Positions 34,024 to 42,229 of a stretch of 58,830 nucleotides of DNA are shown one piece after another; positions within the stretch are counted from its first letter, which is position 1; the number at the start of each line of letters is the position of its first letter. Location: the NCBI GenBank assembly GCA_018896645.1, contig JAHIMF010000062.1:1-58830 (forward strand), read 5' to 3'. Position numbers and translations under genes: made by a program. Under the pieces are notes generated by a model. That model saw only the letters and a program-made list of their open reading frames with translations. It was not told the origin of the DNA and did no database searches. Source of the stretch: Patescibacteria group bacterium (lineage in GTDB: Bacteria > Patescibacteriota > Patescibacteriia > UBA2591 > JABMQE01).

Positions 34024-34455
34024 TTAAACGCCAATCTCCCCCAGCGCTTCCGCAATATCGCCGCTATTCTTTTCAGTATTAGATTTATAAACATTCCACT
34101 TTTCTTCATCCCAAATTTCTAAACGATTATATAAACCGGTAATCACTGTTTTCTTTTTTATGCCGGCATATTTGCGAAGATAATCCGGCACTATTACTCG
34201 GCCCTGTTTATCTAGGTCGCCATCCATGGCGCCGGCCAACATCAGCCGCGCAAAGGCTCGGGTGTTGGCTTGGGAGATCGGTAGCTTGGAAAGCCGTTCA
34301 GCCAGCTTGCCCCACTCTTCTTTTGGATATAAAAATAAACAATCGTCCAGCCCACGAGTGATTACCACGCCTTGGGCTAAATCTTTACGGAACTTGACTG
34401 GCACTGCTAACCGTCCTTTTTCATCTATATTATGATTGTATTCGCCTATAAACAT
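34024..34455 (-). CDS. mraZ: transcriptional regulator MraZ
   Basis: 'MFIGEYNHNIDEKGRLAVPVKFR' and a second SpoVT-AbrB repeat 'DKQGRVIVPDYLRKYA'. Confidence 0.92.
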   Translation of the reverse strand: MFIGEYNHNIDEKGRLAVPVKFRKDLAQGVVITRGLDDCLFLYPKEEWGKLAERLSKLPISQANTRAFARLMLAGAMDGDLDKQGRVIVPDYLRKYAGIKKKTVITGLYNRLEIWDEEKWNVYKSNTEKNSGDIAEALGEIGV

Positions 34456-34629
34456 ATTAAACACGGATGAGCACGGATTATTTATGTACGGATGGCCACG
34501 GATCACGGATCTGTGATCCGTATAAATCCGTTATTAATCCTTAAAAATCCGTGTTAAACCTTTAAATTACAAAATTTGCTTTAATAATCTTTGTTGATGT
34601 GGAAAACAGTTATACACTTTTGCCATAAG

Positions 34630-34660
34630 TTATCCCCACTTTCATCCACATTCTCCCACA
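34630..34660 (-). promoter_or_regulatory. putative MraZ operator: three GTGGR repeats at 10-bp spacing
   Basis: Minus strand reads GTGGGAGAAT GTGGATGAAA GTGGGGATAA, just downstream of the promoter. Confidence 0.5.
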
Positions 34661-34668
34661 TCAATTTT

Positions 34669-34697
34669 ATTATACCCCACCTTGCCACACTCGTCAA
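34669..34697 (-). promoter_or_regulatory. dcw/mraZ promoter TTGACG-N17-TATAAT
   Basis: Minus strand has TTGACG at 34697..34692 and TATAAT at 34674..34669. Confidence 0.55.
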
Positions 34698-34887
34698 CAC
34701 TTTATATTTTATACTAATATTAGCCAAACTTATCCGATATTGTGAGTAAAGTGTGGATAAATAATACTTCTTACATTATTTACCCTGTTAAATGAAAGCC
34801 ATTGACAAAGTCAGTGGTTAACAAAATCAGTCGCAGTTGGTGGTCTAACGCCACCAACAAACGACATTGATTTAACAAGGGCTACTA

Positions 34888-34916
34888 TTGACAATATTTT
34901 ATAGAAAAGATAGTAT
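34888..34916 (+). promoter_or_regulatory. promoter TTGACA-N17-TAGTAT for the plus-strand island
   Basis: TTGACA at 34888..34893 and TAGTAT at 34911..34916. A leader of about 165 nt follows. Confidence 0.5.
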
Positions 34917-35087
34917 AAAAACAGCACCTTTAATTCCTGTTGCTGGATGCAGCCTCGACAAGACGGGGTGGTTGCAAGCAATAAATCGTTCCATTCACCT
35001 CTCAAACGCCTGGATGCGTAGTCGCCGCTAGTCTGCCGATGAGGGTCAGGAAAATGCGGGACCGGACGCAAGGCAAAGGAGGAATTC

Positions 35088-35855
35088 ATGTCTAAGTATC
35101 GGTTTTCTGATTTACCCTTTGATGGTGGCATTGGCCAGGAAATAGTAGTGGTCCAGCCAGGCCCAACCGCGAGTCTTGACAAGGAGAACTTCCTTGCCAG
35201 GGGTGAGTTTGAATCAGTTTTCGCTGCAGTTATGGGCGACAATGCGCTGGTTCACACTGGCACTCTGCACTGTGTTGATGGAGGTGAGCCCTTGAGATTC
35301 AACGAATGTGGTGGCTTTCTCTATCGTGATGTCCACCCCCTGTGCTCTATCCATCCTTTGCAAAATAGGGTGTATGTTGATTTGGAGAAGGATGGTTGGC
35401 CCGCGTTTCATTGTGCTGGTTGCGATACGACTGCAACTCCGAAAATGACAAAAAGAGAGTTCAAGGACTTGATGCTCCATCTAATGATTAAACAAATGGT
35501 CCCCAGCTGGTTTGCGTGTAATTACACCGACTGTAGTCAAATGTCCGAGGATTACCATCCACGAGGCAAAGAAGCAATAAGGGAATTACAAGCTCTTGGG
35601 GTTATTTCAATAGCCCCTAAAATCCTGTGGGGCTTATCACCGGAAAACGCAAGCCGTGAGCAATCTGGTCACTGCGGAATCATGGGTCATCACAGCTTAG
35701 GATTTATGGTGATGCCGGGTACTCGATCCCTGACCCACGGTTGTGATGGCTTTGACGAATGGTTGAAGCTTTTGTTCATTAAATATCGCGAACATATTAG
35801 CGATTGGAACAAAGCAGCAACCAAATCCGCTCTTGGCCCCAGACCAGCAAAATAA
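35088..35855 (+). CDS. orphan Cys/His-rich protein (255 aa)
   Basis: AAAGGAGGA lies 6 nt upstream. 9 Cys, mostly next to His (LHC, FHCAGC, GHCG, THGC). I recognise no family. Confidence 0.6.
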   Translation: MSKYRFSDLPFDGGIGQEIVVVQPGPTASLDKENFLARGEFESVFAAVMGDNALVHTGTLHCVDGGEPLRFNECGGFLYRDVHPLCSIHPLQNRVYVDLEKDGWPAFHCAGCDTTATPKMTKREFKDLMLHLMIKQMVPSWFACNYTDCSQMSEDYHPRGKEAIRELQALGVISIAPKILWGLSPENASREQSGHCGIMGHHSLGFMVMPGTRSLTHGCDGFDEWLKLLFIKYREHISDWNKAATKSALGPRPAK

Positions 35856-35916
35856 TGGTCAGAAGTTCAGATTCAACTCCTTGGGTGGGAGCCAAAAAGT
35901 GTTGCAAAATGAAACT

Positions 35917-35995
35917 GCGCCCGTAGCTCTAAATTGGATAGAGCGATGGACTCCAAATCCAGTGGTTGAGGGTTCAAGTCCCTCCGGGCGTGCCA
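35917..35995 (+). tRNA. tRNA-Trp (anticodon CCA), CCA encoded
   Basis: Hand fold: acceptor GCGCCCG/CGGGCGT (G1-U72), anticodon loop CTCCAAA, T-arm GAGGGTTCAAGTCCCTC, 11-nt D-loop, A-G mismatch at 27:43. Confidence 0.85.
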
Positions 35996-36003
35996 GAAAA
36001 ACA

Positions 36004-36082
36004 GCCGCTGTAGCTCTAACTGGCTCAGAGCAACGCCCTTGTAAGGCGAAGGCTATCGGTTCGAGTCCGGTCAGCGGCTCCA
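36004..36082 (+). tRNA. tRNA-Thr (anticodon TGT), CCA encoded
   Basis: Hand fold: acceptor GCCGCTG/CAGCGGC, anticodon loop CTTGTAA, T-arm ATCGGTTCGAGTCCGGT, A-A mismatch at 27:43. Confidence 0.85.
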
Positions 36083-36099
36083 AAATTTGTTCATTCAAT

Positions 36100-36466
36100 T
36101 TTGCCATGATAAGACGGTAGCCTACTCTTGCGTGAAGTAAAAAAGGAGTTATCCTGGAATATATCTCTACAGAAAAGAGATGAAACCCGAAGGAAAATGG
36201 CTATTAGTCTCGGGTGTTTTTTCATGGCTAACCTAGCAAGGCGGTGGTCTTTCCACTGTAACAAGTGCGCGAAGGGTTAAACATGGCTAATGTGGTCTGG
36301 CTGCGGCCGCGGTCAGATTATGTAGACAGCCGATGTTTCAATTCGTGCCAAGCAGTGCAGTGGCTTACCAGGACCCCTTATCCTCTGGTGCGCCGATTAC
36401 CTTTCAGGGGAGGATGAGCGGGCGATGCCAAGACCGAATATCCTGGCGCCTTGCGGGCCTTTCATT
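36100..36466 (+). ncRNA. unclassified GC-rich structured non-coding region downstream of the tRNAs
   Basis: No credible ORF. Hairpin plus T-run at 36185..36222. ATGGCTA occurs three times (36197, 36224, 36283). 12-bp helix 36374..36385 with 36410..36422, extended by 36368..36373 with 36441..36446. Ends at a strong terminator. Confidence 0.3.
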
Positions 36467-36512
36467 AAGGCATGACTTTAATCAAAACAAGAAGTCATGC
36501 CTTTTTCTTTTC
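36467..36512 (+). terminator. rho-independent terminator (11-bp stem AAGGCATGACT/AGTCATGCCTT plus T-run)
   Basis: Read directly. Convergent with the tsaB terminator at 36527..36555 (minus strand CAGTTTGTGT/ACACAGCTG plus TTTTTTT). Confidence 0.75.
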
Positions 36513-36573
36513 TCTAAACAAAAAAACAGCTGTGTAAAACACAAACTGCTTCCCTATTTACTCTTTTACTTGT

Positions 36574-36993
36574 TTACTTGGTTAACCACTTACTTCCAGT
36601 TATATTCGGTTCCCTCCCATAAAACGGTTCAACCGTCTCCCCTACCCTTGTCTTCTTTAATCTCAACTTACCCATTTTAATCAGGCCCTGCAAATCCTCA
36701 AACTCGCTCAACTTTACCCCAACAACTGGAATTTGTAAAGCATAACTTAAAGTATTAGCCACTACCACGCCCACCCGCACAGATGAAAAACCACCAGGAC
36801 CTTTCACAACCACTACCCCCTGCAAATCAGTGAGTTTAACTTTATTCTTCTTTAATAATTTATCAACAGTTGACAATAACTTTTCTGATTCCTTGTATTG
36901 AACCCTAACAACAGTCTTATCTAAAATAAAATCATCGCGGGTAATCGCGATAACTAACTTATTTGATTCAGCTGTGTTAATTACTAAAATCAT
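36574..36993 (-). CDS. tsaB: tRNA threonylcarbamoyladenosine biosynthesis protein TsaB (short form)
   Basis: 'MILVINTA...' and 'VVVVKGPGGFSSVRVGVVVANTLSYALQIPVVGV'. Confidence 0.7.
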   Translation of the reverse strand: MILVINTAESNKLVIAITRDDFILDKTVVRVQYKESEKLLSTVDKLLKKNKVKLTDLQGVVVVKGPGGFSSVRVGVVVANTLSYALQIPVVGVKLSEFEDLQGLIKMGKLRLKKTRVGETVEPFYGREPNITGSKWLTK

Positions 36994-37113
36994 ATTACTA
37001 CAAGTTACTACGAGTTACTACAAATTACGCGAGCCGAGCTGTAGCGAGGCGAGCTTATTACTATAAAACTGATTAAACTCCAAAGGCACAAATAAAAACA
37101 AACCAATTAGAAA

Positions 37114-37782
37114 CTACCCGCGCTTCGCCCTCACCGCAATCTTCTTCCGACTATGATCCTTTGTCTCCTCTTGAGTCTTTGCTGTGACCACATCAATCAG
37201 CACGATTTTTTCATTCTCAAAAATTGTATATAAAAACCTGTCTGTTAGCTGGTGTCGATATAAAAATTCTTTAGTGCTCATAACCGTATAGCGGATTTCC
37301 TGGCCCAGCTCTTTTTCAAAACGTTTAATTAAATCGGCTAGTTTTTTCTGATTAACGCGTCCAACAATTAACATATCAGTAGTTGCGTCCGCGACACCGG
37401 TAAAGCTACCGGTTAAAGCTAAATAATGGATAGCGCCAATATCCTTAATGTTCTCCATTAAAGAGGTTCGGAGCAAAAGCTGGGATTTCATAATCAAGCT
37501 CCGGAGCTCGTTATATAAAACAAAGCTGGTGTTGGCTTTATAATGAATCTTCTGGGTACCTTTTTCTTTTTTCTTCATCTTTTGAATCAGCCCTAAAGCT
37601 TCGAGATTATCGAGTTCCCGGCACACAGAATTGATATGCTCACTTATGCTCCTTGAAATTTCCCGAATATAAAAACCCTCGCCCCCCTCATCTAACAAAA
37701 ATAGACGCAAAAGCTTAACTCGCGTTTTAGAGCCAAACAGTTGCTCGAAAAAATAAAGAGCTGATTTTTTTGAAGATTTCAT
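37114..37782 (-). CDS. winged-helix (ArsR-like) transcriptional regulator with C-terminal domain
   Basis: 'FGSKTRVKLLRLFLL...FYIREISRSISEHINSVCRELDNLEALGLIQ'. Confidence 0.5.
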   Translation of the reverse strand: MKSSKKSALYFFEQLFGSKTRVKLLRLFLLDEGGEGFYIREISRSISEHINSVCRELDNLEALGLIQKMKKKEKGTQKIHYKANTSFVLYNELRSLIMKSQLLLRTSLMENIKDIGAIHYLALTGSFTGVADATTDMLIVGRVNQKKLADLIKRFEKELGQEIRYTVMSTKEFLYRHQLTDRFLYTIFENEKIVLIDVVTAKTQEETKDHSRKKIAVRAKRG

Positions 37783-41660: not shown

Positions 41661-41689
41661 AGTATAGCAAATGCTAAAAAATATGTCAA
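41661..41689 (-). promoter_or_regulatory. rplJL promoter TTGACA-N17-TATACT
   Basis: Minus strand has TTGACA at 41689..41684 and TATACT at 41666..41661. Confidence 0.6.
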
Positions 41690-41779
41690 GCTTTAAGGTG
41701 TAACCATACCAACCCTAATGCTTGACATTCTTGGTTGCCTTGGCATGTCTGAGTCCCGCCCGCCGAAGCCCTGAGCTTG

Positions 41780-41809
41780 CCTCTCGGCCATGAGCTCGAG
41801 GCCGAATGG
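41780..41809. repeat. GC-rich repeat family 2 copy
   Basis: CCTCTCGGCCATGAGCTCGAGGCCGAATGG compared with 9588..9650. The surrounding 41741..41830 is also GC-rich. Confidence 0.7.
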
Positions 41810-41827
41810 TCGAAGGGCGCAGGCGGG

Positions 41828-42229
41828 TCAACTATTGACTGCTTCCGGCTTTAAATCGTCTAGCGTCGGGAATATTTTGAGCTCAATAATTCTTCTTTCT
41901 TCTTCCTGGACCAGCAAGCCCTTCCGCCTCAAAGCCCTATTAGCGATTAAAGCTTTTTCATCTATTTTTCTGTCCCGCACAACTGTATCGCCTTTTAAAT
42001 CTGCTAATTTTTCATCAAGGTAATCTTTGGTTACCATTTGATTGTCTACATGGTCAATCTTTTTCTCTAGTCTTTGCTCTACGTGGTCAATCTTTTTCTC
42101 TAGTCTTTGCTCTACATGGTCAATCTTTTTGTAAACATCGTCAAAAGAGGGTTTTATGTATTTTATAACCCCATCCTCAAAACTTTCATCAAAAATTCCT
42201 TTTATTTGTTTTAAGTCTTCTTTTTGCAT
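41828..42229 (-). CDS. coiled-coil protein with tandem 11-aa repeats (IDHVEQRLEKK)
   Basis: 133 aa. 33-bp tandem units at 42051..42083 and 42084..42116, plus a partial third. Leaderless-type promoter at 42236..42264. Confidence 0.6.
   Translation of the reverse strand: MQKEDLKQIKGIFDESFEDGVIKYIKPSFDDVYKKIDHVEQRLEKKIDHVEQRLEKKIDHVDNQMVTKDYLDEKLADLKGDTVVRDRKIDEKALIANRALRRKGLLVQEEERRIIELKIFPTLDDLKPEAVNS

Follow-up and report, generated by a model that had tools for sequence, protein, structure and literature searches.

The DNA considered here, referred to throughout as the window, is a stretch of 58,830 nucleotides (nt) from a Patescibacteria group bacterium (GenBank assembly GCA_018896645.1, contig JAHIMF010000062.1). 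An initial annotation, drawn up from the letters alone, had called attention to a region immediately 3′ of a tRNA-Thr gene, proposing that it specifies a non-coding, structured RNA, bounded by a terminator and belonging to no known family. We have examined this candidate, which we refer to as the tail, together with the genes that precede it. On the + strand, a sigma-70-like promoter (34888-34916; TTGACA-17-TAGTAT, with 10 of 12 matches) is followed by a GC-rich leader (34917-35087), an orphan open reading frame (ORF) of 255 aa with the Shine-Dalgarno sequence AAGGAGG ahead of it (35088-35855), and genes for tRNA-Trp (CCA) and tRNA-Thr (UGU) at 35917-35995 and 36004-36082, respectively. The tail starts at 36083, directly after the end of tRNA-Thr at 36082, and runs for about 430 nt through an AT-rich 5′ domain (36083-36231; 36% G+C) and a GC-rich core (36232-36458) to an intrinsic terminator (36467-36512). 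The right-hand boundary, outside the unit, is the convergent gene tsaB (36574-36993, - strand; TIGR03725 at 83.8 bits against a cut-off of 69.3), which has a terminator of its own on the - strand at ~36515-36560; 491 nt lie between the end of tRNA-Thr and the 3′ end of tsaB. The remainder of the window is ordinary chromosome, with an mraZ-mraW-ftsL-PBP-murE cluster and rplJ-rplL.

The tail most likely represents the end of one transcript, because the sole consensus promoter ahead of it lies 1.2 kb upstream. When the + strand was scanned from 34400 to 37000, the promoter-like site at 34888-34916 proved the best; four others, each with 9 of 12 matches, are all located farther upstream, and none was found between 34917 and 36700. 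The last consensus promoter ahead of the terminator at 36467 is thus the one that precedes the orphan gene and its leader.

The tail folds better than chance would predict. Fold energies were expressed as z-scores against dinucleotide-preserving shuffles (200 in each case), and since such shuffles preserve dinucleotides, G+C alone does not explain the scores. On the + strand, core and terminator together (36223-36512) fold at -114.6 kcal/mol (z -4.58), and none of the 200 shuffles is as good; the opposite strand gives a poorer fold (-97.6 kcal/mol, z -2.54). Identical treatment of two RNAs from the same genome gives z -4.43 for RNase P RNA and z -6.66 for transfer-messenger RNA (tmRNA). The core by itself has a minimum free energy (MFE) of -95 kcal/mol (z -3.08; 1 of 200 shuffles as good). 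The G+C content is 52% for core plus terminator and 57% for the core alone, in a genome of 39%.

Both the MFE and the centroid structures, each a prediction from a single sequence, contain a three-way junction. The core is closed by a helix between 36232-36242 and 36448-36457, within which lie a long arm (36245-36370), arm B (36374-36386 / 36409-36422) and arm C (36427-36433 / 36441-36447); pair probabilities in these helices are mostly 0.8-1.0. The long arm ends in a 15-bp apical helix (36290-36304 / 36309-36323) whose loop, GGCC, lies inside the palindrome GCGGCCGC. Six of the pairs in this helix are G-U, which would become A-C mismatches on the opposite strand, and their presence fits an RNA read from the + strand. 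The 5′ domain is closed in turn by GCCAUGA/UCAUGGC (36103-36109 / 36222-36228; probability 0.99), and scores z -2.23, with 4 of 200 shuffles as good.

The sequence features listed by the initial annotation are all present at the positions it gave, and several of them hold up on closer inspection. The CCCCUUAUCCUC helix, in which CCCCTTATCCTC pairs with GAGGATGAG-C-GGG, is predicted with a probability of ~0.95; its proposed extension by CCAGGA/TCCTGG is a minor alternative (~0.09). The palindrome at 36303-36310, described as odd for so AT-rich a genome, does occur just once in the window, but such an occurrence is not unusual (0.51 copies expected; at least one in 37 of 100 shuffles). The triple ATGGCTA at 36197, 36224 and 36283, on the other hand, three copies in 93 nt, is a genuine local cluster; the window contains 18 copies where 7.18 are expected, a number reached by none of 100 shuffles. 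The clean terminator reported at the end of the region is as described: a 13-bp stem (36467-36479 / 36491-36503; -17.8 kcal/mol, z -6.08, equalled by none of 200 shuffles), an 11-nt loop, and then UUUUUCUUUU. With a stable GC-containing stem followed by a U-run on the transcribed strand, 36467-36503 has the make-up of an intrinsic terminator, one that a pattern scan with a loop limit of 8 nt misses because of its 11-nt loop. Collecting GC-rich windows outside long ORFs across the genome gave 284 entries, a set too noisy to be of use, in which the candidate is masked by an ORF beginning at 36333.

A hairpin with a T-run ahead of the core, which the initial annotation had also singled out, fared less well. 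Following a hairpin at 36162-36182 in the 5′ domain, ACCCGA (36185-36190) can pair with TCGGGT (36210-36215) ahead of a T-run at 36217-36222, and the mean pair probability is 0.81; the element is nonetheless at chance level, with z -0.43 for 36178-36224 and 66 of 200 shuffles folding equally well. Natural variation points the same way. Contigs from four groundwater DNA runs, produced in three studies and designated X1 to X4, carry parts of the stretch with almost no differences; among the sequencing runs found to carry it, none is of RNA. Those of X1 and X2 span everything from the orphan gene through the tRNAs and the tail to tsaB, although these two may come from the source sample itself; X3 covers 35989-36483, and contigs of X4 cover 36010-36243, 36311-36519 and 36511-36661. 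The sole differences, found in X3 and X4, cluster at 36185-36193, where five fall within 9 nt as two deletions (of 2 nt and 1 nt) and two substitutions; this cluster is the only variation over 2.8 kb between strains of different studies. The variant costs the first hairpin much of its stability (-2.8 kcal/mol, against -9.2 without the changes) and leaves the core fold unchanged. Because a natural variant disrupts it, the first hairpin is not a conserved terminator, and an untouched core behind a weak, broken hairpin fits read-through into the core. We consequently regard the tail as one region of ~430 nt and not as two units, the first hairpin being both at chance level and lost in a strain variant.

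The tail corresponds to none of the RNA families we could compare it with. We used Rfam 15 (4227 models, among them GOLLD, ROOL, HEARO, OLE, raiA, T-box, 6S, signal recognition particle [SRP], RNase P, tmRNA and group I/II introns), a check that the initial annotation had proposed. At gathering scores the models recover only tRNAs in the whole window. At E<=10, in a search of 35850-36750, there is nothing within 36083-36440, and the sole line touching the tail is suhB/mmgR, which lies on the terminator (36441-36517; 16.4 bits against a gathering score of 41; E 1.4). Neither RNase P RNA nor tmRNA is a viable identification, the genome's copies being on other contigs (C70, 143.6 bits, and C71, 78.8 bits, respectively). 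Two housekeeping RNAs required more attention. In an assembly estimated to be 96% complete, the models for SRP RNA (RF00169, RF01854) and 6S RNA (RF00013) find no match anywhere, and for that reason a divergent SRP RNA was worth testing. In the same genome, however, no Ffh M domain, SRP54-type GTPase domain or FtsY was found, and a six-frame scan disclosed no SRP-type GTPase motif (G3-box). Among relatives, the Ffh M domain (PF02978) is found in 0 of 81 sampled phylum genomes; none of 21 related genomes reaches the cut-off of the GTPase model PF00448, which in the 81 phylum genomes matches short P-loop fragments only, just over the cut-off in 4 of 81. The SRP RNA models find nothing in relatives either (RF00169, 0 of 41; RF01854, 0 of 40). 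The absence of SRP components from the assembly and from the sampled relatives agrees with a remark in the literature that many bacteria of the candidate phyla radiation (CPR) are without the two SRP subunits (PMC8080830). With its partner proteins Ffh and FtsY not found in the assembly, we reject SRP RNA as an identity for the tail. For 6S RNA there is no RF00013 match, and the predicted fold is branched, with three arms.

The two tRNA genes ahead of the tail are not the genome's usual ones. Each is the second copy in the assembly; canonical genes, arranged as tRNA-Thr(UGU)-rpmG-tRNA-Trp(CCA) with AT-rich flanks, are located on contig C70 (49249-49724). The window copies, each with an encoded CCA end and a long D loop of 11 nt, are the assembly's only 79-nt tRNAs with the anticodon at position 37. 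The body of the tRNA-Trp is closest to tRNA-Arg(UCG/CCG), at 74% within the genome and 77-80% in relatives, and not to the other tRNA-Trp. The orphan gene, with 5 TGG codons and 1 ACA codon, would place no special demand on these two tRNAs. Eight anticodons occur twice in the bin (Cys GCA, Leu GAG, Leu TAG, Pro CGG, Thr TGT, Trp CCA, Val GAC and Val TAC); these could be real accessory tRNAs or could result from the mixing of two related genomes in the bin, and with so many duplicates some heterogeneity of the bin is possible.

The orphan protein matches no family in Pfam, PHROG, NCBIfam or PADLOC. When 230 candidates out of a collection of 5.8 billion proteins were scored, two homologues besides the protein itself emerged (P0002, P0003). 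A search of genome contigs yielded one locus with the gene, L050, in a Candidatus Parcubacteria metagenome-assembled genome, where the homologue is 32% identical; no locus was found in viral contigs. The invariant motifs of the family are SDLP, HLMIKQM.P, four Cys in the first half and the Cys of a CD.F.xWLK motif, and in L050 the homologue has a gene for a radical S-adenosylmethionine (SAM) enzyme as a neighbour. A structure model of the protein (predicted local distance difference test score, pLDDT, 54.7) is not usable, and nothing in the protein atlas matches it above 0.75.

The leader of the orphan gene shares more with L050 than chance would provide. Its local alignment with the leader of the homologue scores 30, against a shuffle mean of 15.5, and 0 of 300 shuffles do as well; similarity to the leader of a different L050 gene is weaker (5 of 300 shuffles). 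The shared motif (34917-35087 in the window; 352-496 and 2345-2482 in L050) consists of CCUGYUG..GCUGCAG, a hairpin, GGUUGC, and then GCCGGAUGCG with a second hairpin. For the window leader Rfam offers no relevant match; this leader is of ordinary stability (z -0.38) and has no sequence similarity to the tail. The motif may be a cis-regulatory RNA or an operator.

We tentatively interpret the tail as a functional, lineage-specific structured RNA made at the end of an operon that comprises the orphan gene and the two tRNAs, a reading to which we give a little under an even chance. On this interpretation a single transcript would start at the promoter at 34888 and extend through the leader, the orphan gene, tRNA-Trp(CCA), tRNA-Thr(UGU) and the ~430-nt tail to the terminator at 36467-36512. 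Excision of the tRNAs, by RNase P at their 5′ ends and by 3′ processing at the encoded CCA, would free the tail as a separate RNA. The closing helices would tie its 5′ and 3′ ends together, and the terminator hairpin would cap the 3′ end, so that a stable RNA might be expected. We suspect that the tail would act in trans, probably with the product of the orphan gene or with the two extra tRNAs, rather than regulate a downstream gene, there being no + strand gene ahead of its terminator. It is plausible as a well-delimited candidate, which is something other than a demonstrated RNA gene.

A number of observations weigh against this interpretation, and the most important is that the tail stands alone. 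The initial annotation had made homologous sequences elsewhere one of the conditions of its claim, and on that point the outcome is negative: BLAST, nhmmer and covariance-model searches found no homologous sequence in any set searched. What stands of its overall claim rests on composition, fold energy, strand asymmetry, the lack of an ORF and the Rfam result. In the genome itself, blastn-short and nhmmer recover only the query, and BLAST against 41 related genomes adds one further match, a 19-nt T-run. The covariance model, which rests on the single sequence and its predicted fold, was run under strict filter settings; its reach is therefore short, and distant relatives may be missed. It finds only the tail itself, whether run on 55 genomes of the order, on 151 of the class or on 151 of the phylum, and nothing at E<=10 in the sole other genome of the family. 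Synteny was no more productive. In that family genome tsaB (51% identity) is followed by a protein gene and no tRNAs, and at nine metagenome loci with tsaB homologues (30-47% identical) the model returns noise only. L050 has no tRNAs and no tail, and there too the model returns noise; a terminator of its own lies directly 3′ of the orphan-gene homologue, so that the association of orphan gene, tRNAs and tail is not conserved. The Trp-Thr tandem occurs in no relative, the best BLAST matches being tRNA-Arg and tRNA-Lys genes, and the 11 tRNA loci give only noise with the model. Viral contigs with the tRNA D-arm pattern (39 loci) provide one match to the model, at E 3.4; three 18-nt words from the core are found at 7, 1 and 0 viral loci, all chance matches, and the model gives noise at those 8 loci. 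Phage and plasmid collections contain no BLAST match to the tail. As far as these sequence comparisons reach, the association with the tail would appear to be specific to this genome, and neither conservation nor covariation stands behind what is a single sequence. Substitutions that might be used for covariation are absent because the four DNA runs are near-identical, and the identity of the tail among them is weak support because its flanks are identical too. Two further points concern the sequence itself: the z-score of the core is good yet not extreme, and the orphan gene alongside has a G+C content of about 50% as well, so that the high G+C of the tail may reflect a foreign origin of the 1.5-kb block instead of selection for RNA structure.

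That last point leads directly to a competing explanation, rather unlikely in our estimation, in which an acquired, foreign block of higher G+C ends in a functionless trailer. The tail would then be a spacer, transcribed or untranscribed, and its fold a by-product of G+C and chance inverted repeats. A block spanning 34950-36460 does have ~50% G+C, against 39% for the genome, and it includes tRNAs that are second copies of atypical build and an orphan gene almost without relatives; the failure to find a homologue of the tail in anything searched and the core's z of just -3.08 are what this explanation would lead one to expect. Yet the z-scores, measured against dinucleotide-preserving shuffles, exceed what G+C would produce, and a spacer does not readily account for the strand asymmetry of the fold and the six G-U pairs of one helix, or for ends closed neatly by helices with a strong, dedicated terminator directly after them. 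That the sequence is identical wherever the four runs from three studies cover it adds a little on the same side, a weak point in view of its equally identical flanks. We consider it improbable, more so than the trailer by a wide measure, that the tail is a cis-acting 3′ element of the operon mRNA, either a stabilizing 3′ untranslated region or an attenuator in which 36185-36222 is a conditional terminator and the three CAUGGCUA copies are alternative pairings. The repetition of ATGGCTA within 93 nt, the confident pairing of GCCAUGA (36103-36109) with UCAUGGC (36222-36228) and the position of a hairpin and U-run ahead of the core would all suit an attenuator. The hairpin, however, is the chance-level one, largely destroyed in a variant that keeps everything else; the alternative pairing of the 36223 copy with 36328-36335 has a probability of ~0; and with no + strand gene before the terminator there is nothing to regulate.

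It is also conceivable, if very improbable, that the region encodes small proteins, each ATGGCTA providing a Met-Ala start. Three in-line ATG-GCT starts are available, purine-rich stretches lie a few bases ahead of two of them, and the radical SAM gene beside the L050 homologue could hint at peptide modification; the ORFs that begin at 36197 and 36283 (27 and 45 aa) both encode basic, Cys-containing products. The initial annotation had seen no credible ORF in the region, and none of the frames matches a family: three + strand ORFs tested have no PHROGs family, five stop-to-stop frames have no Pfam family save for one line at E=0.13, and nothing in the 5.8-billion-protein collection is homologous to the translation of the 36333 ORF. 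That ORF (36333-36680) exists as described, crossing both the terminator at 36467-36512 and the - strand terminator of tsaB (z -4.19) before entering tsaB itself. Against the small ORFs it can be added that they cross very stable helices and the hairpin with its U-run, that the purine-rich stretch ahead of the 36197 start is separated from its ATG by only 2-3 nt, and that the strain variant removes it. Scarcely likely, and the last possibility we weighed, is a highly divergent housekeeping RNA, SRP RNA or 6S RNA, missed by the Rfam models. With both models unmatched in the assembly the slot looks empty, and a length of 230-290 nt suits a large-form SRP RNA; but the candidate has no Rfam match at E<=10, the genome and the sampled relatives alike yield no SRP proteins, many CPR bacteria are recorded as having no SRP subunits (PMC8080830), and a predicted three-way junction is not a 6S rod with its central bubble.

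If the tail is, as we favour, a functional RNA, comparison with known systems helps to define what kind of RNA it might be. GOLLD and ROOL are large, ornate RNAs, well above 430 nt, that often adjoin tRNA genes, and the initial annotation had found the position of the candidate suggestive of them. The candidate does adjoin tRNA genes, is non-coding, far exceeds its surroundings in G+C and in structure and has no assigned function, but neither covariance model matches it at E<=10. It differs in size (a core of 227 nt and a tail of ~430 nt, below the sizes familiar for those RNAs), in occurring as a single copy in a single species, without relatives that would make up a family, and in its setting, a window of chromosomal housekeeping genes with no phage context. 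Judged by analogy, the resemblance is limited to tRNA adjacency. 6S RNA has a rod-like fold of about 180-200 nt with a large central bubble. Like it, the candidate would be a stand-alone structured RNA of a few hundred nt with long irregular helices, in a genome without a detected 6S RNA; its predicted form is three-armed instead of a single rod with a large central bubble, and it has no match to the model. The size of the candidate (230-290 nt) would fit a large-form SRP RNA, and no SRP RNA was detected elsewhere in the assembly, but the candidate is without a model match and the genome without detected Ffh or FtsY. The closest precedent for the proposed route of synthesis is the 3′ external transcribed spacer (3′ETS) of the E. 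coli glyW-cysT-leuZ operon, a small RNA of the short, base-pairing sponge type that is cut from a tRNA operon. The candidate would likewise be made in a tRNA transcript, freed by tRNA processing and ended at the operon terminator; unlike such small RNAs, it is 5-8 times longer, has a compact multi-helix fold and belongs to an operon that also opens with a protein-coding gene. The literature on non-coding RNAs of CPR bacteria, in the texts available to us, contains nothing that describes the candidate.

In the ultrasmall, CPR-like bacteria of groundwater, to our knowledge, hardly any non-coding RNA other than the universal ones has been established by experiment. If our favoured interpretation is right, the tail would add a lineage-specific structured RNA that arises from a mixed transcript of mRNA, tRNA and non-coding RNA, and it would provide a handle on an orphan protein family of which billions of predicted proteins include no more than a few members. 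One can go further and speculate, at a level of confidence we would call low, that the locus is a self-contained, undescribed module, in which an orphan protein with a conserved leader motif is combined with two accessory tRNAs that differ in build from the housekeeping copies and a dedicated structured RNA of about 230-430 nt freed by tRNA processing. With that RNA a class of tRNA-linked structured RNAs new to science would begin in CPR-type bacteria, and it would work physically with the protein or the tRNAs, for example as a scaffold or a decoy. For the present the value of the tail lies in its being a well-delimited target, represented by a single sequence, and not in its being an established new class.

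Two other features of the window deserve mention. A 222-aa protein encoded on the - strand at 37114-37782, beyond tsaB, has no Pfam family; it matches the PADLOC candidate defence family PDC-M05A (E 6e-25) and has weak similarity to winged-helix regulators. Upstream of rplJ lies an interval of 59% G+C (41676-41850) that matches nothing in Rfam and may be a divergent L10 leader.

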